Part shown: piece by piece, positions 1 to 26,870 of the stretch
How the letters are laid out: every line of letters begins with the position of its first letter
Numbering within the stretch: position 1 is the first letter of the stretch
Source: a virus
Lineage: Duplodnaviria > Caudoviricetes
Length of the DNA: 26,870 nt
Strand: one strand, 5' to 3'
IMG/VR virus record: IMGVR_UViG_3300016471_000541
Coordinates: 1 to 26,870 of that record
The notes under the pieces: model-generated
The model's database searches: none
Told to the model about the DNA's origin: nothing
The model's input: only the letters and a program-made list of their open reading frames with translations
Made by a program: the position numbers and the translations under genes

Positions 1-1004
1 CGACCACCTAATTGCCCTTCGGTTTTAATACCCAATATCATGGGGGATGTTATACGATGCGCTGTTAATATCTTTTGCTGAACCATATCGTTTAACTGCA
101 TATAGTATTCATCAGTTCCATTTGATTGTATTGGCTCTATTTTGGGTGCATTTTCAGGTGAGTCCACATCCATATAAATTAAACTACCTGCGTTATTTGT
201 CCCAGCATATTGGTTTCTTAGCATTGACTCGATTTCCATGCGCTGGTCTGGGTCAGCATTTAAGAAGGTTGTTATGGCCAATGATGGCGTTAAACCATTC
301 CTTAAATTGTTAGCATGAAAATTATCCGTTTCAATGTCTACCTCAATCACCCTCAGAGCACCTGCATAGTCTGGGAGTGGGTAGTATTTTTGACCAGGCT
401 TATATGGGTTGTAAACATATAATTGCTTGGGTTCTTCAAATGCCCTTTTGGGGTTAAAAGTTGGGAGGAAGGGCAGCTCTTCAAAGGTGCCGGCGCTTTG
501 ATACTTGTTATAAATCCCTCCTCCAATGCCGTATTTGTATTTTTCAGCCCATTCATCGCTGATATAATAACCTGGTATTTTGCCACTTGCGGTCTTTTCT
601 TTTGCTCTTATCCATGAGTAGTCTACATGATATACTTCACTTACTCTACTTCTGTCTTTTGACCATATCACCTCAAGCGCATATCCACCATATAATTTGT
701 AATCTAATGCTATTTTCTTATATATGTCATTCCATGTTTCTTCTAAATTAGCATGGTCTAACATATGGGTATGCCCTTCATCACATACCAAGCCTTCGCC
801 TATCACACCTTCAACTACCGCATTAACACAGGTATTATGTATGCTGGAGTTGTTGTATAGGTATATTAAAAACTCAGGAAAATCATTATACATCCCATAT
901 TTGTAAAACTCACCTGCATTTTGCTCTACCGGGAATATCCTATCATCAGCGTTTTGGCTGTAATTTATCTTACTAAACTTGTAATTTTGTTTTGCTTTTT
1001 CCAT
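1..1004 (-). CDS. Phage portal protein, N-terminal 334 codons (runs off left edge; absent from ORF track)
   Basis: Manual translation from ATG at 1004 is open to position 1: MEKAKQNYKF...YGMYNDFPEFLIYLYNNSSIHNTCV...KIALDYKLYGGYALEVIWS...YYPLPDYAGAL...NNLRNGLTPS...YAGTNNAG...QKILTAHRITSPMILGIKTEGQLGG. These motifs are typical of portals in this phage group. TATTTATA lies 4 nt upstream of the ATG. Confidence 0.88.
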   Translation of the reverse strand, partial: MEKAKQNYKFSKINYSQNADDRIFPVEQNAGEFYKYGMYNDFPEFLIYLYNNSSIHNTCVNAVVEGVIGEGLVCDEGHTHMLDHANLEETWNDIYKKIALDYKLYGGYALEVIWSKDRSRVSEVYHVDYSWIRAKEKTASGKIPGYYISDEWAEKYKYGIGGGIYNKYQSAGTFEELPFLPTFNPKRAFEEPKQLYVYNPYKPGQKYYPLPDYAGALRVIEVDIETDNFHANNLRNGLTPSLAITTFLNADPDQRMEIESMLRNQYAGTNNAGSLIYMDVDSPENAPKIEPIQSNGTDEYYMQLNDMVQQKILTAHRITSPMILGIKTEGQLGG

Positions 1005-1008
1005 CTTA

Positions 1009-1016
1009 TATAAATA
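1009..1016 (-). promoter_or_regulatory. TATTTATA promoter-like motif (portal)
   Basis: GATATTTATATAAG-ATG. One of nine intergenic or gene-boundary copies. Confidence 0.65.
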
Positions 1017-1019
1017 TCT

Positions 1020-1589
1020 TTAATTGTTTTTTGTTGTATAATATCCACGCTCATTTGGGGATATATAGCGCGTAAATGAACCACTTTCATTGGCAGAATA
1101 ATAGTATGTAAATGAGCCGCTTTCGTTGCCTGATGCATATCTTGTAAAATTACCACCCTCATTTGCACTTACATAGCGCGTAAATGAACCTGTTTGATTG
1201 GCATCTACATAAGTAATAAATTGCGGGTCATTACTACCACTTACGAATATTCTTAGTGTATCAATAGGTGTATTTACAAATCCAGCCGAGTCCCAATTAT
1301 AGTTTGCATCGTTCCAAGCTATACCACTACCATCCCATGTCAATAAATCAGCATCTGCATAATATGTATCAACTAAATACCACCCACTTGCAGCAGGTAT
1401 ATATGAGGCTGATATTTGCGTTATTAAATAAGGGGTATTTTGCGTTGATATTACCTCCCCAATTAGTTCAATAGCGTTTTGGTTATACTCTGATGACCCG
1501 CTAAAATAAATAGCTGTTGGCAAGACCGTTGGTGGCGCATCTGGCAACCAAGCTATTGTATTTATTTGCTGTGACTTATTTAAGAGCAT
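1020..1589 (-). CDS. Putative virion protein with Trp-spaced motif and C-terminal 12-aa tandem repeats
   Basis: 189-aa ORF between tail tube and portal. Contains WDGSGIAWNDANYNW and five FTxYxSxNExGS-like repeats. Confidence 0.7.
   Translation of the reverse strand: MLLNKSQQINTIAWLPDAPPTVLPTAIYFSGSSEYNQNAIELIGEVISTQNTPYLITQISASYIPAASGWYLVDTYYADADLLTWDGSGIAWNDANYNWDSAGFVNTPIDTLRIFVSGSNDPQFITYVDANQTGSFTRYVSANEGGNFTRYASGNESGSFTYYYSANESGSFTRYISPNERGYYTTKNN
1040..1220 (-). repeat. 36-bp-period coding tandem repeat (~5 degenerate units)
   Basis: FITYVDANQTGS/FTRYVSANEGGN/FTRYASGNESGS/FTYYYSANESGS/FTRYISPNERGY. tagcgcgtaaatgaacc recurs 108 bp apart. Confidence 0.85.
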
Positions 1590-3289: not shown

Positions 3290-3925
3290 TTAGTTTGATT
3301 TTCTATTTTTGATTAACTCTCGCATCATTGCGTATCTTTTAACATCTACAATGTCATCTTCACGCTTTTCAAGTGAGAATGCTTTTTTAGCCGGAATGGT
3401 TTTTTCAGCGGCTGGTTCGGCGGACATCTTTTCCATTTTGGTTTTCAATTCTGCCATTTCTTTCTTAACGAACTCCATTTCGCTTTTGATTACCTCTGCG
3501 ATAGCCTCTGCAATTTGTGGGAATGTAATAGTATCTTTTACTTCTTCACCCTCTGCTGCAAGTTTAACTACCTCTTCAGTAACCGGATTTGCATTTGGAT
3601 TTGCTGATGTTTCAGTAGTAGTATTAGTTTCTTCAATAGCTGGGGGAGTTACTTGCGTAGCTAGCTCAGCTTCTTTTTCTAATTCTACAACGACACCACC
3701 TTCGGTTTTAATTTTAATTCCACCCTCAAGGATATGATAGCCATCTGGTGCTGCTAACTCTTGTCCTTCTGCGGTTCTGACTGTAACTGCTTTACCCAGT
3801 TCCAATGCTTCACCATCAAAAATAAGAGTAAAAGCACCATTAATGTCTTTAATCTCACCAAAAGAATGTTTCTCTTGCAAGTTGAAGTAACTTTTAACGA
3901 GTTCTTTTAATTTTTGTGTTGTCAT
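3290..3925 (-). CDS. Capsid scaffolding protein (putative)
   Basis: 211 aa, acidic. APDGYHILEGGIKIKTEGGVVVE motif, C-terminal coiled coil and SAEPAA. Lies immediately upstream of the capsid gene. Confidence 0.7.
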   Translation of the reverse strand: MTTQKLKELVKSYFNLQEKHSFGEIKDINGAFTLIFDGEALELGKAVTVRTAEGQELAAPDGYHILEGGIKIKTEGGVVVELEKEAELATQVTPPAIEETNTTTETSANPNANPVTEEVVKLAAEGEEVKDTITFPQIAEAIAEVIKSEMEFVKKEMAELKTKMEKMSAEPAAEKTIPAKKAFSLEKREDDIVDVKRYAMMRELIKNRKSN

Positions 3926-3957: not shown

Positions 3958-4305
3958 CTATTGGTTGGCAGCTTGCCTCTTACGAGCTAATATACGCTCA
4001 TAACACACCTTTGTAAACGCTGGGGATGTATAAGTATTACCCGGCACATTACCTTTTAATTTTGCCATGCAATCAGCAAGTTCTTCTTGTGTTACGGACT
4101 CTATTTCGGCCATAGTATTATTTTTGATTTCTTCGTATGTCCTATATTGGTCTATATTGCTTTTCATAGTTTTGCTTTCATAAAAGTTATTGTAACATAT
4201 TGCCAATGCCTGGTCTTGTGATTTACCTTCGGAGGTTAGGAACTCGGCACATCGGCCTACAAATTCATCTCTTGTTTCAGTTGCGCGTGGTGTAGGTATT
4301 GGCAT
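3958..4305 (-). CDS. Conserved phage head-module hypothetical protein
   Basis: MPIPTPRATETRDEFVGRC...QALAICY motif, common in phage head regions. Start moved to ATG 4305 because the track's upstream start overlaps the TATTTATA motif. Confidence 0.7.
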   Translation of the reverse strand: MPIPTPRATETRDEFVGRCAEFLTSEGKSQDQALAICYNNFYESKTMKSNIDQYRTYEEIKNNTMAEIESVTQEELADCMAKLKGNVPGNTYTSPAFTKVCYERILARKRQAANQ

Positions 4306-4319: not shown

Positions 4320-4862
4320 TCAATTGGTTTTATATTTCCAAATAAAGTTTCCTGCACTTTTTGTTTTATTTTTTGCTACATTAGCAATATTGGTTACATT
4401 TATATTCAATGCTTTACCAGCATCACGTAAACTATACCACTCATTTATAAAATTACCATTTAAATCATATTGAAGTATAGGTGTATTTTTTGATGAAGCT
4501 TTAATTTTTTTACGATGTTCTTCAGTTTTGAGTTTGCCCGTTTTACTAATGCTAACTTTTGCTCGAGTTTCTACGCTACGAATTGCTCCCAAAGAACCTT
4601 CTCCACCATCAGTTTTATTTATTAGTGTTCCTAACCCCAAGTCCTTACGGCCATACAACTTAATAAACTCACGCTCTTTTTCTTGTGCCTGTTCCCATGT
4701 CAGGTCATCAAGCATAATATGCACCTTATACCCATGCTTTTGAACTATGCGCTTCCAATGATTACTTCTTTGCCTACTATAAGCGCGCTTTTCATCTTGT
4801 CCTATACCCACATAAAAAGGTGTGTTAGTGTCTAATCTGATATGTCTATATAATACTGCCAT
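4320..4862 (-). CDS. GIY-YIG-like homing endonuclease with NUMOD3-like and C-terminal NUMOD1 DNA-binding motifs
   Basis: LYRHIRLD..PFYVGIG..KRAY..EKEREFI..LINKTDGGEG nuclease domain. PILQYDLNGNFINEWYSLRDAGKAL..SAGNFIWKY is NUMOD1-like. Confidence 0.85.
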   Translation of the reverse strand: MAVLYRHIRLDTNTPFYVGIGQDEKRAYSRQRSNHWKRIVQKHGYKVHIMLDDLTWEQAQEKEREFIKLYGRKDLGLGTLINKTDGGEGSLGAIRSVETRAKVSISKTGKLKTEEHRKKIKASSKNTPILQYDLNGNFINEWYSLRDAGKALNINVTNIANVAKNKTKSAGNFIWKYKTN

Positions 4863-4934: not shown

Positions 4935-6335
4935 TTATACTCTACCACCATTTGACCTATCATTCATTGGAGTACCAGCTAATCCACCGGCTCTACTTTC
5001 AGATAATAACTCAAATTTGCCATTATTAAAGGTGTACTTAAATTGCCGCCAGTAGTGTTTACAATTAACGCCACCTAAATACTTAAATATGTCATATGTG
5101 CTAGAACCACCTCTACCAAAGCCAGCATTTACTGATATAGAGGACATGGCATCAATATCCTCTTTTGTATAATACTTTTTCATACTCATCATTTGTTTAC
5201 AAAAATCCCGCTCAGGTGATGGGCCTTCATATTTGTAAAGTGTTGTTTGTACACGCGGGTCTTTAGCCCAATCAGGAATTGCTTTTAAGGGGTCTGCATT
5301 TGCTGCAAATAATTCCGGTTCAGTATAACCATTTTGGAGTGCGTAATCTAATACTTTTTGTTTTATTTGTTCTTCTTTTGAAAATCCGGTTATTAATTGC
5401 TCAGTAAACCATCCTTCTACACTAAATCCTCGTATTTCACCCAGTTTTGCTTTTTCCCATATTTCTTCATTATCAATTTTATATACCCCCATCCAAGTTC
5501 CTTTTGGGTATTGTTTTCCATAATAATTTGATTTATCCCTTTCAGGCTCTTCTATTATCCAACTTTCTATCATTGAAACTCCTTCAACGGATACACCATC
5601 ATGCTCTATATTAGAAGAATGTATAAATGGTGATTTCATAAACTTTTCTTGCAATTTTTTTATAGTTTCTTCGCTGAAAAAAACAAAATACTCTTCTTCA
5701 TTTTCATCATCCCACCTACGAATAAGTTTATTTGGAATCATTACCGGCCCAAGCAATCTTCTTTGAGCATTTGTATAATCAGGTATTTCACCAACTTCCA
5801 ATCCTAATTCTTGGGCAAATATATGCTTAAATACTAAATGCTCTATATCGTTAAATGAATAATCTTTATCTATTTCATTTGTAATTAGGGATGTTTTAAA
5901 TTCTTCACCTGCTGCCCTTAATTTCTTTTCAGCCCAGGGTAATGCTTCAGGCCCTCCCCATAACATATAACTGATATATCCGCAGGCATTATAATCACCA
6001 CGACCTCTTGCTAACTCGAAGCTATTTTTATGACGAATTAAAAAGCTTCTCATTCTCCTTATAGTATCTAATGTTAAATTCTCACCTCTTACTAATTGTT
6101 GTGCACGAACTTTACCAACCTGAGTAGCACATTCATTATCTATTTTGATATTTCTTTCAATACCTATTCTTGCGTTATTTCTAACTTTTTCTGGGTAATC
6201 ATTATAAGTTTCAAAGTAATATTTTTGAGCATTGAAAGCATAAAAATCTTCTTCTACTGCTGGTTCTTTTACCAAAGATATTGCTTCAATTTCTACTGGC
6301 AAATTATCGTTTATTTCTAATTCTACTATTTTCAT
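4935..6335 (-). CDS. XkdF-like prohead serine protease with extra domains
   Basis: AISLVKEPAVE; LLGPVMIPNKLIRR..FVFFSEETIK..NIEH..ESWII..PKGTWM..GEIRGFSVEG. C-terminal RDFC..GGVNCKHYW domain. Confidence 0.8.
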   Translation of the reverse strand: MKIVELEINDNLPVEIEAISLVKEPAVEEDFYAFNAQKYYFETYNDYPEKVRNNARIGIERNIKIDNECATQVGKVRAQQLVRGENLTLDTIRRMRSFLIRHKNSFELARGRGDYNACGYISYMLWGGPEALPWAEKKLRAAGEEFKTSLITNEIDKDYSFNDIEHLVFKHIFAQELGLEVGEIPDYTNAQRRLLGPVMIPNKLIRRWDDENEEEYFVFFSEETIKKLQEKFMKSPFIHSSNIEHDGVSVEGVSMIESWIIEEPERDKSNYYGKQYPKGTWMGVYKIDNEEIWEKAKLGEIRGFSVEGWFTEQLITGFSKEEQIKQKVLDYALQNGYTEPELFAANADPLKAIPDWAKDPRVQTTLYKYEGPSPERDFCKQMMSMKKYYTKEDIDAMSSISVNAGFGRGGSSTYDIFKYLGGVNCKHYWRQFKYTFNNGKFELLSESRAGGLAGTPMNDRSNGGRV

Positions 6336-14368: not shown

Positions 14369-14372
14369 AATT

Positions 14373-14831: not shown

Positions 14832-14834
14832 AAT

Positions 14835-15089: not shown

Positions 15090-15099
15090 AATTTTTCCT

Positions 15100-15414
15100 T
15101 TATTTTATTTTATATTGATTTGTTTTATTTTTTTGTGCCATTCTTTCTTGATATGCTAAATCCTTTTCTATTGCTAACCAGTTCATTACAAATATATAAT
15201 TTAAATCCGTGATACTTCTATCCCCGTTAACTGAAAGGATGGAAGTTTTTGATAAGTGATGAATTGTAGCAAACCATCCCCAATGTTTACTGAATTCTTC
15301 TTTATCACTTTTTTCATATTCTCCTTCAGGTTCTTTATCATCCCCTTCTTCTCCGTTTCCATTGAATAAGCCTGCGAAGCGCTTATTGTTAGACCTGACT
15401 GAAGCAAAAAAAAA
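15100..15414 (-). CDS. Tail assembly chaperone frameshift extension (gpT-like, -1 frame)
   Basis: Open -1 frame from the T9 run to the stop at 15100: FFASVRSNNKRFAGLF..FSKHWGWFATIHHLS..MNWLAIEKD. The track's start at 15471 is probably not real. Confidence 0.65.
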   Translation of the reverse strand, partial: FFFASVRSNNKRFAGLFNGNGEEGDDKEPEGEYEKSDKEEFSKHWGWFATIHHLSKTSILSVNGDRSITDLNYIFVMNWLAIEKDLAYQERMAQKNKTNQYKIK

Positions 15415-16016: not shown

Positions 16017-16688
16017 TTAAAATAAGTTAGGGGCGGTTATTTCCCCCAACATATATAGTTTTTTCTTTCTTTTTTCCCAATCCAATTTTGCTGCTTCGCT
16101 TAATTTAGCACGCGTTTCAGCTGAAATAGGTGGTTTGGGTTTACCTTTATTTGCTGCACTCATTTTTGCACGATGTTCGGCTGACATTATTTTACCTTTA
16201 TGCCATTCACTCATTTTAGCACGTGTTTCTGCTGATTTAGGTTTACCTTTATGTGTAACACTAATTTTAGCTTTGGTTTCAGCTGAAAGTGTTTTATTTA
16301 AATTAGGTTTTCTTCCTTTTCGTGCTTCACTCATTTTTTGTTTTGTTTCTGCTGAATGGGTTTTACCTTTATTTCCCTCACTAATTTTGGCACGATGTTC
16401 TGCTGAATATACTCGCCCAATAGTACCTTCACCACCATCAGTTAAATTACATAATAACCCACCGAACTCACTTCTACCATACAAAACAATAAACTCCCGC
16501 TCCTTCTCACAAGCTTGTTCCCATGTTAAGTCATCAAGCATTATTTGGACTTTATAACCATTCTTAGCAATATTATTCCAATGCTGGTTTCTATTAAATT
16601 TCCAATGAGCACGTTTCTCTGTTTTCCCAATACCTATATAAAAAGGCTGGTTAGTATCTAATCTTATATGTCTATATAGTACTGCCAT
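16017..16688 (-). CDS. GIY-YIG-like homing endonuclease with ~6 NUMOD3 repeats
   Basis: MAVLYRHIRLD..FYIGIG..KRAH..EKEREFI..LCNLTDGGEG, then SAE(T/H)xAK(M/I)S..KGK repeats. Confidence 0.85.
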   Translation of the reverse strand: MAVLYRHIRLDTNQPFYIGIGKTEKRAHWKFNRNQHWNNIAKNGYKVQIMLDDLTWEQACEKEREFIVLYGRSEFGGLLCNLTDGGEGTIGRVYSAEHRAKISEGNKGKTHSAETKQKMSEARKGRKPNLNKTLSAETKAKISVTHKGKPKSAETRAKMSEWHKGKIMSAEHRAKMSAANKGKPKPPISAETRAKLSEAAKLDWEKRKKKLYMLGEITAPNLF

Positions 16689-16690: not shown

Positions 16691-17917
16691 TTAATAATAT
16701 TTTATTTTATCCATACCACCCACATAAATGTCGCTTCCATGCAATTTATTTCTCGCAGCATTGGCCATTGCTATACTATCTACTATATCATCATGTCCGC
16801 CTGGTGGATGTGAAAAATAAATTGTGCCTGATGGACTATACTTATATGTGTACTGCGCAAATTCAGCATAGCATTCCGGCATTAGGTTTTTTGAAGGTAA
16901 TAATATTTGTGCTGTTTCAATATCATTTATTAATAAACGCACATTTTGGACTTTTATTGTATTATTTGTAAATTGTGGAATTGTTTTTATTCCTGATTTA
17001 CGGATTAATTCAAACATGCCCTGTCCAACACCGTTTGTCTCCACAATGCATTGCTTAACATTCCAGCGCTTGAGTTCGCGTATGAAAGTATTTCCAGTCT
17101 CTTCAAGACTTCTTCCATTAATTCTAATAATTGATACTGTTTCTCCGGACTCTCCAATAATGGAACATACTGCAAAGTCGCTTGAGACAGCAGTATCAAT
17201 TCCGCTAAAATAATTTCCTGTTGTGTAATCATTCCACCTTTCTATAATACATGCTTCATCCAAATTACGAAATACATCATTACCTGACTCGGAAAATTCT
17301 GCAAGATATTCTTGTCTATAAATACTATCAGGTAATGACTTTCTTTGCTCTTCAATAAACCCTAAATCAATATGTGGATTATCAGTAGATGGGCCTGTAA
17401 ATTGTATATAATCCTCACCTTGCTTATAAAACCACTCAAAAAACCAATTCTTAGAGCGTGGAGTTGATATGATTAAACATTTCTTACCCCTTGCTGAAAG
17501 AGTTGGTAGGATTGCTTCTAATACAGTATCCTGGCGAATAAAAGCAGCTTCATCTATAACCATATAATCAAAGCTGAATCCCCTTATTGAATCACCCTTT
17601 TCAGCTGAAAGAAATTGTAAGGTTGAACCATTTATGAACTCTAACTTTAATTCACTTTTATTTCCATAACGAATTATTTTATTTGCAGCAGTACTTAACT
17701 CATCATATACTTTACCGCATTGCTTGTAAATAGGTGCAATCCAACAACCCTTCATACTTCCCCTCTTTAATAACCACCATAACATCATATTTTGAGCAAG
17801 AAGCGATTTACCATATTGACGACCGGTTGATACAACGCAGAACTTATGTGGTGAATCTATAAACCCATCAATTATTCTTCTTTGCCCTTTATGTGGTTTA
17901 AATAGGGTTACATCCAT
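16691..17917 (-). CDS. terL: Terminase large subunit
   Basis: Walker A GRQYGKS, Walker B MVIDEAAF, motif III ISTP, RQEYLAEF, RNase H-like nuclease motifs GIDTA and HDDIVDSIAMA. Confidence 0.95.
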   Translation of the reverse strand: MDVTLFKPHKGQRRIIDGFIDSPHKFCVVSTGRQYGKSLLAQNMMLWWLLKRGSMKGCWIAPIYKQCGKVYDELSTAANKIIRYGNKSELKLEFINGSTLQFLSAEKGDSIRGFSFDYMVIDEAAFIRQDTVLEAILPTLSARGKKCLIISTPRSKNWFFEWFYKQGEDYIQFTGPSTDNPHIDLGFIEEQRKSLPDSIYRQEYLAEFSESGNDVFRNLDEACIIERWNDYTTGNYFSGIDTAVSSDFAVCSIIGESGETVSIIRINGRSLEETGNTFIRELKRWNVKQCIVETNGVGQGMFELIRKSGIKTIPQFTNNTIKVQNVRLLINDIETAQILLPSKNLMPECYAEFAQYTYKYSPSGTIYFSHPPGGHDDIVDSIAMANAARNKLHGSDIYVGGMDKIKYY

Positions 17918-17920: not shown

Positions 17921-18175
17921 TTAATGATTCCATTGTAATGTTGCCCTCTCCTGCATTACTAATGAAGCTGGTGGTGGACAATCACATTCCTTTTTAAAAG
18001 CAAATAATAATTCATTAGGGTTTCTATTATTTTCTTTACAAAATTGGATAAATTCTTCACCATCATCCGCATCTATATAAGAAGCATGAGTTCCACATTC
18101 ATCACATAAAAAAATTAATTTATCTAAATCCTGCTCTTTAAGCTTTACTAATATTTCAGGCTTCATCGGTTTCAT
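17921..18175 (-). CDS. Hypothetical protein (Cys-containing)
   Basis: 84-aa ORF packed between putative terS and terL. CDEC and ECDC motifs. Confidence 0.6.
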   Translation of the reverse strand: MKPMKPEILVKLKEQDLDKLIFLCDECGTHASYIDADDGEEFIQFCKENNRNPNELLFAFKKECDCPPPASLVMQERATLQWNH

Positions 18176-18605
18176 CTTTTCCCCATTTTAAATTGATTTC
18201 ACTATTACCTTCAACTCTAATCTTATCTTCATGTGCACCTGAATACTTAAATACTTGCTCAACCGCTTTTTGTTGTATCTTTTCATCAACCGATTCTAAA
18301 TGCGAACCAATTTTATTTACAGCTGGGAGTAAGTATGTTCTAAGTATATCTTTCCAAGCGGAATCATACATCTCCCCTGCTTTTAACCAATATTTCGTAT
18401 AAGTGAGGCCTGATTTATCCCCATAATGCTCTTTACAATATTCCACCCATTTGGGTTGTGTTATTGCCGGTCTTTGGATATATCTTAATTCAAAGCAGGT
18501 TCGGATTCTTTCACCCGTTTCAGCTGCTGATAATCTTTCCAATTTACTATTTTTTTTATTTGCAGTTGCAAGACGTTGCTTCTGCTCTTCTGTCCAATTA
18601 TGCAT
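18156..18605 (-). CDS. Terminase small subunit (putative)
   Basis: 149 aa, helical, upstream of terL. C-terminal beta strand KIRVEGNSEINLKWG is typical of TerS. Assigned mainly by position. Confidence 0.5.
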   Translation of the reverse strand: MHNWTEEQKQRLATANKKNSKLERLSAAETGERIRTCFELRYIQRPAITQPKWVEYCKEHYGDKSGLTYTKYWLKAGEMYDSAWKDILRTYLLPAVNKIGSHLESVDEKIQQKAVEQVFKYSGAHEDKIRVEGNSEINLKWGKDETDEA

Positions 18606-18849
18606 TTTTGTCCTCCACTATCTTTTTTAATTCTTCTTCATATTGCTCAAAAAGTGAAATTGATATCTGCTGAAAAGCACCATAATTACACTTACATTCC
18701 GGAATAAAAACTTCATGCCCCCTTATCAATTCTTGAGCTAATTTGTGCATTGCAAGGCGTTTATAATCTAAATAAGAGTGTGTCATTTCCTTTTTATAAA
18801 AGTTTAGGAGCCAGCCTGCGTCTGCTTTGGTGATATTAGTGTTTAACAT
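18598..18849 (-). CDS. Hypothetical protein
   Basis: 83-aa ORF with CKC motif, overlapping the next start. Confidence 0.65.
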   Translation of the reverse strand: MLNTNITKADAGWLLNFYKKEMTHSYLDYKRLAMHKLAQELIRGHEVFIPECKCNYGAFQQISISLFEQYEEELKKIVEDKNA

Positions 18850-18873: not shown

Positions 18874-19617
18874 TTAAGAATTATTTATTACTTTTTTTTG
18901 CCAATATAGTTTAACTCTTGCACTAATTTTAGCACAATGTTCTGCTGAGCGAGGTGATTTAGGTTTACCCTTAGATGCTTCACTAATTTTAGCTTTGGTT
19001 TCAGCTGAAAGTGTTCTACCTAAATTACTTTTTTCTTTTGATATAATACTAATTTTAGCCTTAGTTTCAGCTGAATGAGTTCTACCCTTAGATGCTTCAC
19101 CAATTTTAGCTTTGGTTTCTGCTGACATTATTTTACCTTTATTTGCTGCACTCATTTTTGCACGAGCTTCTACTGACATTATTTTACCCTTAGCTGCTTC
19201 ACTCATTTTAGCACGATGTTCTGCTGAAAAAGGTGGTTTAGGTTTACCTTTTTGTATAGCACTAAGTTTGGCACGAGTTTCTGCTGAATGGGTTTTACCC
19301 TTAGCTGCTTCACTCATTTTTTGTTTAGTTTCAGCTGATGGATTAAGTATGCCATCACCACCATCGGTTAAATTACATAGTAAGCCACCAAACTCTTTTC
19401 TTCCATACAAAGCAATAAACTCCCGCTCCTTTTCACAAGCTTCTTCCCAAGTCAGGTCATCAAGCATTATTTGGACTTTGTATCCGTGCTTATTAACAAT
19501 AGACTTCCAATGCTTGTTTCTACTATGAATGCTATAAGCACGTTTTTCTGTTTTACCTATTCCTATATAAAAGGGTTCGTTTTTGTCAAGCCTGATATGT
19601 CTGTATAATACTGCCAT
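18874..19617 (-). CDS. GIY-YIG-like homing endonuclease with ~8 NUMOD3 repeats
   Basis: Paralogue of 16017..16688 with the same N-terminus and a longer repeat array. Confidence 0.85.
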   Translation of the reverse strand: MAVLYRHIRLDKNEPFYIGIGKTEKRAYSIHSRNKHWKSIVNKHGYKVQIMLDDLTWEEACEKEREFIALYGRKEFGGLLCNLTDGGDGILNPSAETKQKMSEAAKGKTHSAETRAKLSAIQKGKPKPPFSAEHRAKMSEAAKGKIMSVEARAKMSAANKGKIMSAETKAKIGEASKGRTHSAETKAKISIISKEKSNLGRTLSAETKAKISEASKGKPKSPRSAEHCAKISARVKLYWQKKVINNS

Positions 19618-19634
19618 AAGTTTTTCTTCTTTTA

Positions 19635-19642
19635 TATAAATA
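19635..19642 (-). promoter_or_regulatory. TATTTATA promoter-like motif (HEG-terminase operon)
   Basis: AAAAATTAGATATTTATAT, identical in this stretch to the copy at 20065. Confidence 0.65.
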
Positions 19643-19671
19643 TCTAATTTTTTATTAAAAACCCTTATTTT

Positions 19672-19944
19672 TTAGTATTTTTTTGTTTTTTTATTCACTA
19701 AATATTTTATTCCCACAACTTTTATTAGTGCCCCTTCCAAGCACAATGCTGCTTGCTCAGACAATCCATATGCAAAGACTTCAATGTCATAATGTCCACT
19801 ATTTTGCTGAACTATATTATACCATTCTTTTGTTCTTCCATGCTTTACTATTGCTCTATTATCACATCCTTTTCCTATATAGAAAATTGTATTATTAATT
19901 AGATGAGCATATACATAGTATTTAAAAAAATATTCATTGTTCAT
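19672..19944 (-). CDS. Stand-alone GIY-YIG-like nuclease domain
   Basis: YYVYAH..FYIGKG..RA..GR..W..EQAALCLEGALI..LVN. No C-terminal DNA-binding module. ATG at 19944 preferred over the TTG at 19956. Confidence 0.75.
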   Translation of the reverse strand: MNNEYFFKYYVYAHLINNTIFYIGKGCDNRAIVKHGRTKEWYNIVQQNSGHYDIEVFAYGLSEQAALCLEGALIKVVGIKYLVNKKTKKY

Positions 19945-19982
19945 TTCCAGCTCCAAGTTATTAATAATGAAGCTTGTATTTA

Positions 19983-20580
19983 CCCTCTCTAAGCGTAGAG
20001 AGGGGTTTTCGCATTCCCTAAAGGGAAATGCTCAAACTTCCAAACGTAACTTGTTAAATACTGATATAAATATCTAATTTTTCAGGAAACTTAAAGTTTA
20101 TAGTGTCGTTGGGGGGTTCGTTTTTCACGAACACCACAACATTCTCCGCCAGGAGAATTATTTAATGCTCAACAACCTTATTACTTAAATAAGTTTAATT
20201 ATTATTATTAAGCATAAATAAGCCGTATAGCGAAATTGAAAAAAAAATAAATTGTGATTTAGTAAAGCAGTCCTGTCGGATAACCCATATTGTTACATAT
20301 TCCTAAACAGGCTACGTCTATATTACGCCCTGTTCCTATTGTGTTTTTTACTTATATAAGAATGCGGTTGGGAAATTTCACCCCGGAGTGGTTACCGTAT
20401 TCATTCTTAATTTCATAAAAAGACAAGGCCCCATTTCGCATATTAACAAAATGGTTCTGCACCCTAACTATCTGTTCTACGGCTAAGCAGAGGCCTGTTG
20501 CTCTTTTGCATGCACGTTGCGTTCCCCTGCTGAATTGTGAGCTTTTCGCTCCCGCATAATAGTTACTATTGTTTTTCATT
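19983..20580. ncRNA. Candidate structured RNA or replication origin (hairpin cluster)
   Basis: At least eight inverted repeats in the largest region lacking convincing genes, with promoter motifs at 20585 and 20065. No known family recognised. Confidence 0.35.
20065..20072 (-). promoter_or_regulatory. TATTTATA promoter-like motif
   Basis: GTTT-N14-TATTTATA upstream of two hairpins and the stand-alone nuclease. Confidence 0.6.
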
Positions 20581-20584
20581 CTTA

Positions 20585-20592
20585 TATAAATA
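20585..20592 (-). promoter_or_regulatory. TATTTATA promoter-like motif driving the structured region
   Basis: ATATCGTTTTTTAAA-N9-TATTTATA. Confidence 0.6.
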
Positions 20593-20725
20593 TACCCGAA
20601 ATTTAAAAAACGATATTAAAAAAGGATTAAAAAAATAACTTAGTGTGACAAGAGATGTCACTGTGACTTAGGTAATTTTTGCTTTTTATTGCGGTTGCTT
20701 AATCTTTTGCAAATTTTATTCCATT

Positions 20726-20836
20726 TTATTTTTCAGCATAATGCTTTTCAACAAGGTGTTTAACCCATTTTGGAATCCATCCAATTACGATTACCCAAAA
20801 GGTTATTATAAACACTATTATTTCTTTTTCAGTCAT
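20726..20836 (-). CDS. Small membrane protein (36 aa, below track cut-off)
   Basis: MTEKEIIVFIITFWVIVIGWIPKWVKHLVEKHYAEK starts 2 nt after the sigma gene stop and has one hydrophobic segment. Confidence 0.55.
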   Translation of the reverse strand: MTEKEIIVFIITFWVIVIGWIPKWVKHLVEKHYAEK

Positions 20837-20838
20837 TT

Positions 20839-21360
20839 TTATTCCTCCATACAGTTTTTACAGGTTTCTTTAATTCTATCATAGATTTTTTGAAACTCTT
20901 GCGGCAAAGTACCTTTTGGTAAGCCGTAAGTTTTTGTTATTTTCCGTAAACTCATTCCATCAAAAAAATGTAACTGTATTAAACGAGCTTCATACCACCC
21001 TAATTTTTTTATTTCTCTATCAATGCATTTAATCATTATTTCTTTTGGTTCTTCTTCTTCAATAGATGGATTACCCAAAATAGGTACATTTCTTGTATAA
21101 TATGCACGATATTTTCTAAAAAATGGTGATGAACCTGATTTAATTTGCATTGATGCTACCCTGAATAAGAAGTTTTGTATTTTATCATCCCTCAACATCT
21201 GCTCTTGCATAACAATGTCTTTATTTAGGAAAGTTTCTATGCATATTTGTAATAAATCATCAGCATAACCTGACATTTGACCATTAGCAATATTTTGTTT
21301 AAAGTTCTTGCGTAAATTTTGATAATTGGCTTCAAACCAGTCATTTATTTCGTCTTTCAT
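20839..21360 (-). CDS. Sigma-70/ECF-like phage transcription factor
   Basis: Region 2-like ADDLLQICIETFL..NFLFR and region 4 HTH LGWYEARLIQLHFFDGMSLRKITKTYGLPKGTL. Confidence 0.75.
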   Translation of the reverse strand: MKDEINDWFEANYQNLRKNFKQNIANGQMSGYADDLLQICIETFLNKDIVMQEQMLRDDKIQNFLFRVASMQIKSGSSPFFRKYRAYYTRNVPILGNPSIEEEEPKEIMIKCIDREIKKLGWYEARLIQLHFFDGMSLRKITKTYGLPKGTLPQEFQKIYDRIKETCKNCMEE

Positions 21361-21364
21361 CTTA

Positions 21365-21510: not shown

Positions 21511-22047
21511 ATGTTAAAACTGTGCAAAAAATGCGAAAATTATCACCCAATAACCAACTTTTCTAAAAAAACTAAAAATAAAGATGGGCTGCAAGATTAT
21601 TGTAAATCATGCAATAAAATTGACAATCATAAATTTAGAATATTAAAGCCTGATTATAAACAAGAATGGGATACTAAAAACCCTGGTGTTCAATCAAAGA
21701 TTTTTAGAAATTGGTGCAAAAATAACGCAGAAAAATTAAAAGAAATACAACAAAGACATATTAATAGCTGGGGAGCAGGGGTTTATGAAATAAAAAATAT
21801 CGTAACGGGAGAAAGATACATAGGTGCTTCTAAAAAATTAAGAATACGATATACTGAACATTTTACTGGTAATGAAAAAATATCCAACAAAAATTTACAG
21901 GCTTCTATCAAACATTACGGAAAAAACTTATTCCAATTTAAAATATTAGAAAAGGTTGCTGATACGAATTTATTACTTAAAAGAGAGAGATATTGGATTG
22001 GGAAAGAAAAGCCGGAATATAACATATACCTGTATCATCAACAATAA
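21511..22047 (+). CDS. Zn-finger + GIY-YIG endonuclease
   Basis: N-terminal CKKC..CKSC. GVYEIKN..YIGAS..RYTEH..FKILE..RERYWI..PEYN. Confidence 0.85.
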   Translation: MLKLCKKCENYHPITNFSKKTKNKDGLQDYCKSCNKIDNHKFRILKPDYKQEWDTKNPGVQSKIFRNWCKNNAEKLKEIQQRHINSWGAGVYEIKNIVTGERYIGASKKLRIRYTEHFTGNEKISNKNLQASIKHYGKNLFQFKILEKVADTNLLLKRERYWIGKEKPEYNIYLYHQQ

Positions 22048-22064
22048 AAAAAAGGGGAAATAAA

Positions 22065-23204
22065 ATGAATAACTTTTGGGAACAAATTGATTATAATAAA
22101 GCACGAAAAGTATTAGTAATACCAAATATAACTAATTCTAGAAATATCGAAAAAGATTCTTTTGTAGATGTAATTTATAACCACATTAAAGCATTAGAAA
22201 AATATGGCAATTACTATTGGCATATATTAATTCCTACAGGAAATATTACAAAAAAACTAAACTTACCAAATGTAAAGCAGTATCAAATTGATATTCCAGG
22301 TGATATGCTTAATCAAAGAGCATTTCCATCTCCCAAGCTTATTGATTTATTGCGAGATATTGATTATGATATAATTTACTCACATTTACCAGATTGGCCA
22401 CAAGTTCATCGTTATCGTAAAACAGCAGATACTAAAATAATTGGTTACTGTCATTGGTGGGAAATGAAATTATGTAATGGACCTGATAATAGACCAGGTA
22501 AGCCTAAATCATTATGGTTTCAAATGCAGATATTAGGAGCATCTAAAATGGAAGTCCTATATGTAAATACACATGAACAAAAAAGAAGAGTATTAGAAGA
22601 AGCAAGTGAAACATTTAATACTGCTTTTATTTCTAAATTAGATAATATAATTAAAGTATGGCATTTAGGTGTACCTGAAGAAAAGATATTAAATAAAGCG
22701 AATACTGAAAAAGAAAATATAATTGTATTTAATCACAGGCCTGCCGGATATAAAGGTTATCCAAAGTTTATGGAAATGATGGAAGAATATTATAAAAGAA
22801 GGCAAGATTTTGTAGTATGGGTTACTCAGTTAGATGGAGAAGTTCCGCATAAATGGATTAAAATAATTAAACCTTTAAGTAAAGAAACTTATTATCAAGA
22901 ATTACAAAAATGTAAGGTTGGTATTCAAATGAAGCAGACACATTATGGTTGGAGTATTGCTGCAACCGATTGTATGATGAATGGAACACCGGTTATTTTT
23001 CAAGAATCACCAAATTATTATGAGTTACATCCCCATGCACCTTTCTTCAAAAATAAAAATGAATTCTTCCATTTGCTTGATAAAATGTTAGATGATAATT
23101 CATTTAGACGTGCAGAAGAATCAAAAGCACTTATTCGTTCTAAAGAATTATTTGCTGAAGAAGATATTATGATTAAAGAATTACACCAAAGATTGGGTGG
23201 ATAA
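22065..23204 (+). CDS. GT-B fold (GT4-like) glycosyltransferase
   Basis: 379 aa. DYDIIYSHLPD, IVFNHR..KG, YGWSIAATDCMMNGTPVIF corresponding to the GT4 nucleotide-sugar-binding motif. Confidence 0.8.
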   Translation: MNNFWEQIDYNKARKVLVIPNITNSRNIEKDSFVDVIYNHIKALEKYGNYYWHILIPTGNITKKLNLPNVKQYQIDIPGDMLNQRAFPSPKLIDLLRDIDYDIIYSHLPDWPQVHRYRKTADTKIIGYCHWWEMKLCNGPDNRPGKPKSLWFQMQILGASKMEVLYVNTHEQKRRVLEEASETFNTAFISKLDNIIKVWHLGVPEEKILNKANTEKENIIVFNHRPAGYKGYPKFMEMMEEYYKRRQDFVVWVTQLDGEVPHKWIKIIKPLSKETYYQELQKCKVGIQMKQTHYGWSIAATDCMMNGTPVIFQESPNYYELHPHAPFFKNKNEFFHLLDKMLDDNSFRRAEESKALIRSKELFAEEDIMIKELHQRLGG

Positions 23205-23205
23205 T

Positions 23206-23607
23206 TTAACTTTTATGTTTATCTATCTTTTCTAATATTTGTTGTAGTAATCCAGCCTTTATATACCCTGCTCTTGAGGCATTTTTAAGGGCGCTAATCA
23301 ACTGAAATATAACGAATGGTAATATAATAGTTTCGCTTAAAAAGAACACTTTAAAAGCCCTCTCTGTGATTAATACGGTGGCAAGTATAACACACCAAAC
23401 TGCTGTATTTCTTATTACATTGAGGGCTTTATTTGTTTTAAATCCTTCCCTCTTACTACCGGCAATTATACCAAATACTCCATCTAAAAACATTACTGCA
23501 ATAATAGATAAGAATTGCTCAGCATTATCCATAACTAATATTTGTAAGTAAGAGCATATAAATGCTATTAGTCCTGCAATTCCAGTTGCTGTTATTTCAG
23601 TTTTCAT
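23206..23607 (-). CDS. Holin (phage holin 4-like)
   Basis: 133 aa with 3-4 hydrophobic helices. FLDGVFGIIAG..FKT..QLISALKNASRAG and a basic C-terminus. Confidence 0.75.
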   Translation of the reverse strand: MKTEITATGIAGLIAFICSYLQILVMDNAEQFLSIIAVMFLDGVFGIIAGSKREGFKTNKALNVIRNTAVWCVILATVLITERAFKVFFLSETIILPFVIFQLISALKNASRAGYIKAGLLQQILEKIDKHKS

Positions 23608-23610
23608 ATG

Positions 23611-23808
23611 TTATTCTTCTTCGGTTGTCAGTAATTGATATATAACATCATTTATGATATTTTCATCTGTTGTTTCTAATTTATCTATTAGTATGCTATA
23701 TAATTCATGATAGTTTGATTCACCCTTCACATACATTATATCATTTGCTTCTACAAATAGTTTAAGCATTCCAACTAATTGTCCAATTTGATTATCTAAC
23801 TCATCCAT
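23611..23808 (-). CDS. Hypothetical acidic protein
   Basis: 65-aa ORF packed between fibre and holin. Confidence 0.6.
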   Translation of the reverse strand: MDELDNQIGQLVGMLKLFVEANDIMYVKGESNYHELYSILIDKLETTDENIINDVIYQLLTTEEE

Positions 23809-23821
23809 AATATTCTTTCAT

Positions 23822-25912
23822 TTAATATAAAGCGTTCCAAGTTGTTCCATCCCAAAAGAAGGGCTTAGGAGGTATAGAAGAAGATACCATAAAAGAACCT
23901 GTAGGGATATTTGTTGTAGGTAAAGGATGATGTGGTGTAATAGCAAGTATAGGAGCTAAACCTAAGGAAGAAGAAATATGAATTGAAGCAGAAGGCGTTG
24001 TAATACCAACCCCAATACTTCCAGTAATATTAACTACGCTACGTTGTACCCCACCAAATTCCCAAGTTTGTAATAGTTTACTTCCTGTTCCTGCTGTTGT
24101 AGCGTGGGTAGCATTTACTCTTAATACAGTATAACCACTCCCACCAGTAGAACTTTGGTTAGCATTAAAGGTTACAGACATCGGGTTTTGTATAGCGGTT
24201 GCTGATGTGCCACCCATTGTGACATTAAACAGCTCACTATTGCCTGTACTATCTCTATTAACTGAGGATACGCTACCAAATCTCCATTCACTACCATTAG
24301 CTGCAAATCTTACTGAGCCACCAAATGCTGTTCCTGTTCCTTGAACATCTAAATCAAATCCTGATGTTGGTGCCACTCCAGTTCCAGCAAAAAATACTGC
24401 GCTACCGCTTCTAATATTTAATATGTTTTGTGAGCCGCTTGTTACTCTAAGAAAATCATTACCATCTGAACCTGATACATGAAGGCGAGCTAAAGGGTTT
24501 GTTGTTCCTAATCCTAAACTACCACTACCAGTCAATCTTAATTTTTCGGTTAAACTATTAGAAGCACCAGCAGCAATAGGACCGAAAGTAGAAATAGTTA
24601 TAGGATATCCTTGCCCACTAACCAATCCTAAATCAGTTATTCTACTATTACCACTCCCCCAATCAATATATCGTGTACCATCTAATGCTATATTACCACC
24701 TGCTACATGTAATAATTCTCTTGGTGTTGTAGTTCCAACACCTACTCTACCACTACCACTTATAGACATTATAGTACTACTACCAGTAATAAAATCTAAT
24801 CTTGTTTGTCCAGTAGCACCTGTATTTTGTAGGGCGATTGTACCATTATCACTTGAGTTATTTAATCTTACTTGCTTTCCAGTTAAAAATACAGTTGCAC
24901 CCGTTCCATTGGGACTTATATTTAAATTTGCATTAGTACTTGTAGTTAATCCGGCAACACCATTTTGTTGAGATATAATTAGAGAATTACCATTTCCAGC
25001 GTATCTAAATTCTGCTATATTTTGGGTGAATGGAGAAACACCTGCTCCTTGAACAAATAATGCTGCCTCATCTGATGTTATTCTTGTTTGCCTATCATCC
25101 AACACCACCAAACTTGCGCTTGCATTGCTGTTTTCTACTCTAAGTGCTGTTGTTGCGGATGTTGCTCCACTACCTCTAATTTCTAATCTCGCGGAAGGGT
25201 TTATTTTGTTTATACCAACATTACCATTACCTAAAAAGGTCATTTCTTTTACACTATCTGTCTCATTATTAATAGTCAATCCACCATCTAAATGTCGTAT
25301 TGAATAAGTATCTTGCCCTGCTCTATTTAATAGATAACCATAACCAGAGGCACCACTACCACTAACTTGTATAAAACCATCTCTAACATCTAAACGTTGG
25401 GTTGGGGATGTTGTTCCAATACCTACATTACTTGTTGGGGTTATTTTAACATTATTTGTAAATGTAGAGCCATTCCAACTTCTTAATAGCATACCACCAT
25501 CGGTACTATCACGATGTATGTTGGGGAATGTGGCCCCATTAGCATTTATACTAACACCAGTACTCCCATTAACAACTAAATTATGGACAGGTGTTGCAGT
25601 TCCAATACCTACATTACCACTGCTACTAATATGAACTCTTACTGAACCACTTGTTTCTAATTGTAAATCTTGAGTATCGTTAGTGCCTAAAAGTGCCGTA
25701 GCCCCAAATGAGTTGCCACCTTGTAAAAAAGCCCCACTTAGGAAAGATGCGGTTTGAGCATTAACCGCATTTGAAGCACTTTGGGCCCAACTTGCGGTTA
25801 CTGATATATTGGATATACTTGTCCCATCACCCTTTGCCAAAGCATTGGATGCGGTTATTTGTACCAGGTCTTGGTAACTATTTTTTATGAATTGTGGTCC
25901 TAAGTTCGCCAT
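23822..25912 (-). CDS. Tail fibre/spike-like protein with GNVGIGTTxP repeats
   Basis: 696 aa, G/S/T/N-rich. About six G(N/R/S)(V/L/I)G(I/V/L)(G/N)xxxP..L(H/D/E)V repeats. No C-terminal S74 chaperone recognised. Confidence 0.75.
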   Translation of the reverse strand: MANLGPQFIKNSYQDLVQITASNALAKGDGTSISNISVTASWAQSASNAVNAQTASFLSGAFLQGGNSFGATALLGTNDTQDLQLETSGSVRVHISSSGNVGIGTATPVHNLVVNGSTGVSINANGATFPNIHRDSTDGGMLLRSWNGSTFTNNVKITPTSNVGIGTTSPTQRLDVRDGFIQVSGSGASGYGYLLNRAGQDTYSIRHLDGGLTINNETDSVKEMTFLGNGNVGINKINPSARLEIRGSGATSATTALRVENSNASASLVVLDDRQTRITSDEAALFVQGAGVSPFTQNIAEFRYAGNGNSLIISQQNGVAGLTTSTNANLNISPNGTGATVFLTGKQVRLNNSSDNGTIALQNTGATGQTRLDFITGSSTIMSISGSGRVGVGTTTPRELLHVAGGNIALDGTRYIDWGSGNSRITDLGLVSGQGYPITISTFGPIAAGASNSLTEKLRLTGSGSLGLGTTNPLARLHVSGSDGNDFLRVTSGSQNILNIRSGSAVFFAGTGVAPTSGFDLDVQGTGTAFGGSVRFAANGSEWRFGSVSSVNRDSTGNSELFNVTMGGTSATAIQNPMSVTFNANQSSTGGSGYTVLRVNATHATTAGTGSKLLQTWEFGGVQRSVVNITGSIGVGITTPSASIHISSSLGLAPILAITPHHPLPTTNIPTGSFMVSSSIPPKPFFWDGTTWNALY

Positions 25913-25919
25913 ATATCAA

Positions 25920-26558
25920 TTAACACTCTCTGCAGCCAGGGTAAAATATATCACTTCCGTATGGCATATATGGGTAGCGTGAGTCTGCCATTCTCATACC
26001 AGCTCTTTGAGCCTGTCTTTGCCATTGATTAAACCTTGATGTAACGAATGGAGAGCGATAACCTGTCTGATAATCCGGGTAGGCCTTCCAAAACTCACCA
26101 TTATTATTTAACTCTGGAAAGTCATTTTGGTTTTGTATTAAGTATTGTGTAAGTTTATTTCCGTAAAATTGCGACTTATTGTCAGCCAACTGCCTCTTTT
26201 TCTCAAATAGTCGTTGGTCCACATTGATGCTATTTTCACCACCTGTTGGGGTTAGCAAACCATTGTTGCGTGGTCTTAAATAGATGTATTCCAGCGACTC
26301 CCAGTATGATGCCCATATAAGGTAGGGGACAATAAAAGAGTTTACAAGCGTTAAATATACGCCAGCTAAGGTATTGTTATCAATGTCATTTATTACTCTC
26401 TGATATAATGCAGTGCTTATCAAGCGTTGTAAATACACATCTTGCGCAGTTGATATAGCTGTTGTTAGTAGTTTTGCATCTACATTGTTATTCAGGTCTG
26501 TAAATGACCGCAATTTGGTTTCTGATATAATAAGTGTTTCAGTCGGTGGGTAGCTCAT
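25920..26558 (-). CDS. Head-tail adaptor-like protein (DUF6712-like)
   Basis: LIISETKL..NNNVD..AQDVYLQRLISTALY..YLTLVNSFIVPYLIW..YL..FPE. Lies directly downstream of the portal C-terminus. Confidence 0.65.
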   Translation of the reverse strand: MSYPPTETLIISETKLRSFTDLNNNVDAKLLTTAISTAQDVYLQRLISTALYQRVINDIDNNTLAGVYLTLVNSFIVPYLIWASYWESLEYIYLRPRNNGLLTPTGGENSINVDQRLFEKKRQLADNKSQFYGNKLTQYLIQNQNDFPELNNNGEFWKAYPDYQTGYRSPFVTSRFNQWQRQAQRAGMRMADSRYPYMPYGSDIFYPGCREC

Positions 26559-26676
26559 ACTTTTTCCGTTTATATAATTTTTTAGATGGTGTTATTTTCT
26601 CTGTCATTTTAATGCCGATATGTCGGTTCGCTTCACCAGCACTCCAACCACCATTAAAGTTTAATTTCTTCTTCAT
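26539..26676 (-). CDS. Small basic hypothetical protein (45 aa, below track cut-off)
   Basis: MKKKLNFNGGWSAGEANRHIGIKMTEKITPSKKLYKRKKYELPTD fills the gap and overlaps both neighbours by ~20 nt. Confidence 0.5.
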   Translation of the reverse strand: MKKKLNFNGGWSAGEANRHIGIKMTEKITPSKKLYKRKKYELPTD

Positions 26677-26870
26677 TCGTTACCCCCAAAAAAGCATCAA
26701 TTTGCTCTTTCGACAATCCGAACCCAGCAGCTAGCATTGTTTTAGCTTGTTCAAGTGTAATCTTATCTTGCCCATAATGCCTCACTATCCTCATCAGGTT
26801 TTGATATTGACGTCCGCTAAGGGTTCGCATTACCTCATTGGATGAAAGCTCAACAGCGTCGCTCGTTTGC
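26654..26870 (-). CDS. Portal protein C-terminal fragment (enters from right edge)
   Basis: QTSDAVELSSNEVMRTLSGRQYQNLMRIVRHYGQDKITLEQAKTMLAAGFGLSKEQIDAFLGVTNEEEIKL*. I recognise this helical extension from portal C-termini of related phages, and it lies upstream of the adaptor. Confidence 0.65.
   Translation of the reverse strand, partial: QTSDAVELSSNEVMRTLSGRQYQNLMRIVRHYGQDKITLEQAKTMLAAGFGLSKEQIDAFLGVTNEEEIKL

Follow-up and report, generated by a model that had tools for sequence, protein, structure and literature searches.

A 27-kb tailed phage genome with a full virion gene set and no replication genes is a probable satellite of large T4-like phages

The closest described counterparts of the genome analysed here are the Streptomyces satellite viruses MiniFlayer and MulchRoom, which, according to the available part of the source (PMC10690885), carry capsid genes and no primase, and the similar satellite virus Ando, which borrows its tails (available part of PMC13587820). 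In these sources all three encode their own capsid and packaging proteins, contain no primase or replicase, are tied to a large virulent phage and follow that helper in composition. The bacterial satellite viruses described without a replicase are few, all of them Streptomyces isolates, and not one has its own long tail. In this study, we examine a stretch of 26,870 nucleotides, hereafter the window, which is the entire IMG/VR record IMGVR_UViG_3300016471_000541 (G000) of a tailed virus (Caudoviricetes). Its gene content and that of its relatives make it probable that the window is a virion-encoding satellite virus whose helpers are large T4-like phages related to Immutovirus, from which it would borrow replication, late transcription and lysis, and multiplication only in cells co-infected by a large phage is likely.

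As expected of a satellite virus, the window encodes its own capsid and packaging proteins and has no primase, replicase or other replication gene; like MiniFlayer, it also has no integrase. The Streptomyces elements are 13-17 kb long with a short or borrowed tail (15-17 kb and no long-tail genes in the Mulch/Flayer family), whereas the window genome measures 27.1 kb and includes tail tube, tape measure, tail tip, fibre and sigma factor genes. Their dependence was shown by culture, while for the window, with a T4-like candidate helper, we infer it from sequence. Homology to MulchRoom and MiniFlayer was sought in 50,697 phage records: the capsid had no match, the portal matched nine records, none from Streptomyces, and for the terminase neither element appeared among the 20 listed of 1,708 matching records. 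The window would then work like MiniFlayer and MulchRoom while being unrelated to them and having a full tail module. The capsid-forming phage-inducible chromosomal islands (cf-PICIs) and the Acinetobacter phage Phanie resemble it in having their own heads and in being small; they depend on a helper, as the window probably does. However, these two, P4 and the PICI-like elements (PLE) keep replication genes and borrow virion parts, as far as the available parts of PMC10690885 and PMC11476376 go, and the window is the reverse; Phanie encodes a polymerase and relies on borrowed tails (PMC11476376, available part). The window also differs from cf-PICIs, PICIs and P4 in having no integrase or integrated copy and no primase or Rep, and in carrying tail genes. 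A preliminary description of this DNA had drawn the contrast with P4, PICIs and PLE; the window does the opposite of these elements, but that account overlooked the replicase-less, virion-encoding satellite viruses of Streptomyces (PMC10690885, available part). Our literature search, which did not extend to subscription journals and supplements, found no description of the clade to which the window belongs or of its promoter link to large phages.

The 32 genes occupy 94.6% of the genome, and the large ones lie on the minus strand, two excepted. The largest gap (19957-20351, 395 bp) holds no stop-free stretch longer than 39 aa. Searches of PHROGs and Pfam with 34 open reading frames (ORFs), and of NCBIfam with 30, named portal, TerL, XkdF protease, tape measure, neck, fibre, DUF6712 and holin families, together with an extracytoplasmic function (ECF)-type sigma factor, five GIY-YIG-type nucleases and one glycosyltransferase (GT). 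For capsid, tube, scaffold, chaperone and adaptor, the assignments come from gene position and from profile matches to related phages instead of a named family. In the same libraries no window ORF matched a polymerase, primase, helicase, Rep, SSB or recombinase family, nor an integrase, repressor, partition or endolysin family, and the ORFs of 36-84 aa matched no family; no tRNA and no Rfam family was found in the window. The preliminary description, made from the letters alone, had listed a full virion set without replication, integration or endolysin genes, five GIY-YIG nucleases, a GT, a holin and a sigma-like factor, and the three libraries bear out each element of that list, as well as the lack of any ORF resembling a replication initiator. 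The largest unassigned ORF of the early block (149 aa) has a predicted helical fold; its weak named matches are small terminases, and its model gave no fold match below E 0.001.

A minus-strand portal ORF leaves the window at position 1 and re-enters it at 26870. Five contigs (L001, L002/L081, L003, L438 and L439) and a Logan unitig from run X2, 5,668 nt long, bridge the window ends, each with exactly 234 nt, and the bridged ends form one 484-aa portal ORF in the three contigs translated. Since the ends are bridged by this constant length within one portal ORF, the map is a circle of 27,104 bp, 99.1% of which lies in the window. Unitigs of run X1 tile window 7000-26848, interrupted at NUMOD3 repeats only; runs with a share below 0.3 were excluded. 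The source population of the window may be represented by L001 and runs X1/X2; L003, L081, L438 and L439 are other strains, at 83-97% DNA identity. The closure and completeness of the genome are real. The near-complete genome of about 27 kb reported earlier was thus confirmed, with both ends in one portal gene and no kilobase-scale replication module between them. Direct joining of the window ends was tried and rejected: it leaves the portal in frame but incomplete.

Relatives were collected by a capsid gene search, which matched 227 stretches of IMG/VR and 257 metagenome stretches (the best 80 of each were used), and with a terminase profile, which gave 177 stretches (best 80 used). This freshwater clade is seen in lake and estuary data. 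Eleven further complete or near-complete clade genomes span 24.3-31.3 kb (CheckV 94-100), and gene order is the same in clade genomes. These data bear on the idea that the genome is an assembly artefact or a defective particle whose replication module was lost from the contig. No single listed unitig covers the whole genome, and unitigs break at the endonuclease repeats, as that idea would have it; yet the 234-nt gap recurs in six independent assemblies, four relatives closed by direct terminal repeats (24.3-28.4 kb) also have no such module, and no clade contig exceeds 31.3 kb among the best 80 capsid, 80 terminase and 80 metagenome loci, the 31.3-kb contig itself repeating its terminase. We regard an artefact as highly improbable. 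No integrated copy was found in GTDB with the capsid profile, and the longest of the best 80 metagenome contigs is 27.6 kb. The GTDB terminase match proved to be one unrelated haloarchaeal terminase, not a prophage.

The loss of replication genes is best seen against a more distant sister group of six uncultured genomes (G023-G028), whose terminase and capsid are 32-35% and about 25% identical to those of the clade. The virion module is homologous and in the same order in the clade, the sister group and the cultured Nonlabens phage P12024S (Inhavirus), and in all of them the sigma gene precedes the terminase block; the capsid, for instance, is homologous to that of the sister group (1e-34 to 1e-42) and to P12024S gp02. 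The sister group carries a primase-helicase, ERF, an exonuclease, SSB and a VRR-NUC nuclease between the lysis genes and sigma, plus an endolysin, and the slot of P12024S holds an endolysin, ERF, an exonuclease, SSB, a primase and a helicase. Thus, these relatives retain replication genes, an endolysin and other late motifs that the window does not have. Probes for the primase-helicase, ERF, exonuclease, SSB, VRR-NUC and five lysins matched all six sister genomes and none of 17 clade genomes compared (12 complete or nearly so, five partial), 174 clade loci or 80 metagenome loci. The absence of replication and endolysin genes is clade-wide, which settles a question the preliminary description had raised. 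In the 23 contigs that span it, the slot between fibre and sigma measures 0.27-2.9 kb, mostly with a nuclease inside.

The second line of evidence is a shared promoter-like motif, TATTTAT. In the window, TATTTATA occurs ten times on the minus, coding strand and not at all on the plus strand (shuffle means 3.3 and 4.6). Eight of the ten copies lie 3-17 nt upstream of start codons, before the portal, scaffold, 121-aa ORF, protease, chaperone, endonuclease 3, 75-aa ORF and sigma genes, and TATTTAT also stands upstream of the plus-strand operon. The motif precedes 8 of 31 window ORFs, where 0.8 are expected. Across the clade, it is found in distinct sequences upstream of the chaperone (48/58), portal (42/68), scaffold (38/66), tape measure (30/52) and protease (20/65) genes, and never before the operon-internal capsid (0/77) and terminase (0/71) genes. 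Two large phages, G006 and G009, have the motif before 29 of 231 and 26 of 202 ORFs (4.0 and 4.9 expected), with the same base profile as in the clade. In contrast, it is at background in four sister genomes (2-3 of 39-46 ORFs) and in P12024S (1/49). The late genes of P12024S instead have AAC-N17-CGTT (7/49, 1.7 expected), which we take to be an ECF-type site, and those of the sister group a CGAACA-led motif, found by eye.

In the cultured Flavobacterium phage immuto_2-6A, the motif stands before 18 of 60 virion-block genes versus 2 of 47 small early-type ORFs (Fisher p=0.0008), counted from annotated starts and our own block assignment over 100 of 160 kb. The genes concerned include terminase, portal, sheath, tube, hub and tape measure; the small ORFs bear a two-box promoter instead. 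A protein of 241 aa is also conserved among Immutovirus-like phages; it shows a weak match to sigma region 2 (E 0.012), and its Atlas neighbours are named sigma factors. This protein is a candidate late sigma factor and candidate counterpart of T4 gp55, and TATTTAT would be the promoter that it recognises.

Consistent with a relationship to large phages, 78 of the best 80 IMG/VR loci matching the window GT are large-phage DNA, in contigs of up to 266 kb, with a polB-like gene following in 73 of the 80. The best match, L135, and the contig L001 share an IMG number in their names. Within the clade, the GT is limited to the window and close relatives, and a quick tree is compatible with one or two acquisitions. 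Four of five GT-bearing large genomes have a Gp23-type capsid. The genome G006 encodes polB, UvsX, a gp41-like helicase, SSB, clamp, clamp loader, primase and two endolysins, and its GT adjoins three Mom-like genes and a nucleotide pyrophosphohydrolase, so that a DNA-modifying role for the GT is plausible from position. The GT had no sequence match in the PDB and none among cultured phages, immuto included. GATC and CTAG are low in the window and in G006 and G009, which is uninformative on base modification. Across L095-L104 and L315-L334, avoidance of single 4-base palindromes was strong and genome-specific, with AATT absent from G002, CTAG absent from G011 and G012 and GATC nearly absent from the window, a pattern pointing to differing host restriction systems.

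Fibre DNA is likewise shared, through recent exchange. A 1,145-bp stretch of the window (23624-24764, the fibre end and the 65-aa ORF) has 87% identity to a gene that adjoins the neck genes of G029, a large-phage fragment encoding a sheath, and 333 bp (25094-25426) are 95% identical to L338. Strain L438 carries another piece, of 1,863 bp, at the same place, 86% identical to L338. In that strain (L438:14969-16815), the capsid is 99% identical and most of the fibre is replaced by two genes like those beside the L338 neck genes (86%). Codon usage in all 12 clade genomes measured is closer to the large phages (distance 0.73-0.87) than to the sister group (1.19-1.43), the sister group itself lying 1.08-1.53 from the large phages; genome length and GC content may bias these distances. 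The links to large phages that the preliminary description had proposed to look for were therefore found, in the motif, the GT relatives and the fibre DNA. Among cultured records, the large phages come nearest, at 53-56%, to Microcystis phage Mel-JY01 (as deposited) and to the immuto phages of Flavobacterium; judging from cultured relatives, the host is probably a member of the Bacteroidota. Of the cultured phages, the one most similar to the Flavobacterium-phage-like genomes is PP395634.1; its deposited host is a cyanobacterium, and this host entry may be questionable. Immutovirus-like phages resemble the window in the TATTTAT sites before virion genes, and uncultured ones also share its fibre DNA and GT; they differ from it in being myoviruses of 160-266 kb that encode a complete T4-type replisome and an unrelated capsid. 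Because the GT has no match in immuto, that phage is a relative of the likely helper rather than a demonstrated helper. Its DNA modification is a deazaguanine, unrelated to the window GT (available part of 10.1101/2023.04.13.536721).

Three joint changes separate the clade from the sister design, namely loss of replication genes, loss of the endolysin and exchange of the late motif for that of co-occurring T4-like phages, and use of a helper is the simplest account of all three. Borrowing of replication from a helper or the host had been proposed earlier; that proposal is supported and the evidence favours a helper, on which the window would probably depend. In the mechanism that we envisage, the virion would infect hosts of large phages, using fibre parts acquired from them. 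Upon co-infection, the late sigma-like factor of the helper would read the TATTTAT sites and turn on the operons, including the gene for the window's own ECF sigma, which may in turn raise head-operon expression. The T4-type replisome and recombination proteins of the helper would copy the terminally redundant DNA, either in a recombination-dependent manner that begins at ends or nuclease breaks, or starting at an R-loop within the non-coding block; the element's own terminase would package its own heads, and helper endolysins would free both progeny. In the available part of PMC3016281, T4 can replicate a plasmid that has no T4 origin, through recombination, where homology or a break is present, and it also assembles on any R-loop that is already formed. 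A terminally redundant, endonuclease-rich genome would therefore need no Rep. More tentatively, we propose that the clade is a long-tailed freshwater satellite family descended from an Inhavirus-like ancestor, in which replication and lysis genes were deleted, promoters were rewired to the late sigma of a T4-like Bacteroidota myovirus, and copying became Rep-less.

Several observations weigh against a satellite lifestyle. DUF6291, which we take to be a replisome-organiser domain, was found by Pfam in proteins of G015, L068 and L279, similar proteins were recognised by eye in L252/L253, and L285, L288 and L237 encode an initiator-like protein, an AAA protein and an SF2 helicase, respectively. 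These came from scans of accessory proteins, 68 from five genomes and 105 chosen from 293 clusters (core, fibre-like and shadow frames left out). They raise the alternative of a lambda-like design, with one small ORF acting as a hidden initiator that brings in the host replisome, a role that DUF6291 and winged-helix proteins may play in the other subclade. Initiator-like slot genes do occur in about five related lineages, and the window has ORFs of 84, 84, 83, 75, 65 and 36 aa without a family. However, the DUF6291 and L285 probes found no match in the window, the 75-aa protein is not conserved in the relative G001, the 65-aa ORF arrived with the fibre from a large phage, and the slots of two contigs (G012, L248) hold no such gene. 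Carriers of DUF6291, initiator-like or AAA genes all belong to a single subclade of the terminase tree (13 rows, support 100), intermixed with non-carriers, with L237 elsewhere and L068 not in the tree, while the window belongs to a different subclade (quick tree, 43 rows). A hidden initiator would also leave the missing endolysin and the promoter motif unexplained, and we think it improbable. In the carrier subclade, DUF6291 or winged-helix initiator-like genes lie immediately before sigma (L296:6492-7010, L068:19279-19836, L279:6613-7074, L252:6585-7127, L285:187-726), where they alternate with small genes.

The ECF sigma factor is itself retained throughout the clade, the strict TATTTAT motif stands before it in no more than 6 of the 38 sequences compared across the clade, an ECF-type site lies upstream of the window's head operon, and in five clade genomes the motif count per genome is 3, not above the random maximum. 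An autonomous phage could transcribe its late genes with this sigma, replicate with host enzymes from a protein-free, RNA-primed, ColE1-like origin, and either lyse the cell with an unrecognised enzyme or exit without lysis. Reliance on host replication is reported for some tailed phages (available part of 10.1101/2024.04.26.591309), and a possible origin is at hand: upstream of sigma, the slot of many relatives has a hairpin with a 5-bp Watson-Crick stem, an AT-rich loop of 20-30 nt and a G-run after it, which to us resembles an RNA-primed origin. Compensatory changes occur in 5/5 pairs, with 85/85 cells paired in 17 sequences, several of them near-identical and the structure being derived from the same alignment. 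The hairpin is restricted to clade members, and it and the G-run are a candidate origin or protein-binding palindrome. A second slot element, of about 130 nt with several short inverted repeats, has a GGGGTGAAATT core that recurs at window 20384. Neither element was found in the window by nhmmer, and neither matched an Rfam family (4 loci). The window's own non-coding block (19957-20725) is 84% identical to G001 over 67 nt (20350-20416); the promoter-like start and the end of its 75-aa ORF (20352-20579) are conserved as DNA, and the transcript may be non-coding. Autonomy would, however, require three coincidences: endolysin loss in 17/17 genomes, the exact late motif of large phages, and codon usage nearer to theirs. 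An R-loop origin would suit a T4-type replisome equally well (PMC3016281, available part), and we consider an autonomous phage unlikely.

Further points limit what the links to large phages can say of a satellite relationship. Swaps of fibre DNA need shared cells, and thus indicate a shared host rather than dependence. The common late motif and similar codon usage, too, would in part suit two phages of one host. The exchange was seen in 2 of 17 genomes and close strains only, near the window's branch and with a limited pool compared. The autonomous sister genome G028 has a 60%-identical lysin in common with the large phage G006. Relatives of the endonucleases are large phages in 10 of 80 cases only, 55 of the 80 being unassignable, and the GT fold model matches general retaining GT-B enzymes and no listed T4 glucosyltransferase. 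A host-promoter matrix found nothing in the window and nothing in the sister group, and a strong site in two clade genomes, and neither it nor a two-box pattern told the clade from the sister group; since the matrix is equally blank in the sister group, the window may well have early promoters that it misses.

If the satellite reading is true, a long-tailed satellite family lies concealed in viromes as ordinary small siphoviruses, the lifestyle would be common, judging from hundreds of clade records in lake and estuary data, and complete-looking small phage genomes from viromes need not be autonomous. A promoter-level signature could then pair satellites with helpers by sequence alone. The existence of a cultured relative of the candidate helper makes the satellite idea testable.

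Table 1. Location of features in the window and in related sequences
Feature	Location	Strand	Basis and remarks
Portal, N-terminal 334 aa	1..1004	-	PF04860, phrog_11226, bridging contigs
Portal, C-terminal 71 aa	26654..26870	-	Bridging contigs
Core gene, 189 aa, between tail tube and portal; probably head-closure/neck	1020..1589	-	96 clade loci, position; no family match
Predicted tail tube (major tail), 191 aa	1737..2312	-	phrog_19091; clade profile matches sister group and P12024S gp03 (1e-18); function by position
Predicted major capsid, 312 aa	2332..3270	-	phrog_11320; most conserved gene, after protease and scaffold
Predicted scaffolding protein	3290..3925	-	TATTTATA at 3950
Small conserved head-region ORF	3958..4305	-	TATTTATA at 4319
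GIY-YIG/NUMOD1 homing endonuclease 1	4320..4862	-	ECF-type site AAC-N17-CGTT immediately upstream
XkdF-type prohead protease	4935..6335	-	PF14550; TATTTATA at 6346
Tape measure, 720 aa	6350..8512	-	phrog_1506/3336
Two tail-tip genes, 1297 aa (C1q-like domain) and 483 aa	8522..13866	-	Pfam; gene order and homology of relatives
Neck/tail-completion (166 aa), terminator-like (152 aa), helix-turn-helix-like ORF (84 aa), tail-chaperone-like (243 aa)	13868..15932	-	phrog_5, PF04883, sister homologues
TATTTATA before tail-chaperone-like gene	15954
GIY-YIG/NUMOD3 endonuclease 2	16017..16688	-	PHROGs, Pfam
Large terminase	16691..17917	-	PF03237, phrog_2
84-aa ORF; probable small terminase (18156-18605); 83-aa CxC ORF	17921..18849	-	Small-terminase basis weak; no meaningful PDB match in search within the block
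GIY-YIG endonucleases 3 and 4	18874..19956	-	PHROGs, Pfam; TATTTATA at 19642
Mostly non-coding block, candidate origin region	19957..20725	-	Hairpins; TATTTATA at 20072 and 20592; DNA blocks conserved in G001
36-aa membrane ORF	20726..20836	-	Conserved in G001, L081
ECF-type sigma factor	20839..21360	-	TIGR02937/TIGR02959, phrog_1740, Atlas, 54 loci; TATTTATA 4 nt before start
GIY-YIG endonuclease 5	21511..22047	+	TATTTAT at 21446; fills slot of sister-group replication module
GT-B glycosyltransferase	22065..23204	+	Closest relatives adjoin polB of large T4-like phages
Holin, no endolysin alongside	23206..23607	-	PF05105, TIGR01593
65-aa ORF and 696-aa tail fibre	23611..25912	-	DNA matches to G029, L338
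DUF6712 protein, predicted head-tail adaptor	25920..26558	-	PF20459; sister and P12024S homologues
Hairpin and G-run element of relatives	L249:3805-3885; L241, L097, L298, L288, L259, L262, L292, L057, L237, others
Second slot element of relatives	L303:4025-4157, L297:455-586, L048:19394-19518, L087, L094, L272
241-aa sigma-like protein of large phages	L217:17778-18503 = G006 55778-56503		Unannotated

Some features of individual genomes are of separate interest. The end of the 189-aa core gene (1034-1203) consists of four 36-nt tandem repeats, in which strains differ in copy number. In L254 (114-4256), unlike other members, a clade-type terminase block follows thymidylate synthase-like, MazG, pyridoxal phosphate-enzyme and primase-zinc-finger-like genes, a candidate base-modification cluster or recombinant. 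G012 (L317:5167-8478) and G013 (L319:1914-4785) have a further variable island of up to 10 small genes, located between the terminase and tail chaperone genes, and one gene of the G012 island has a strong early promoter of the large-phage type.

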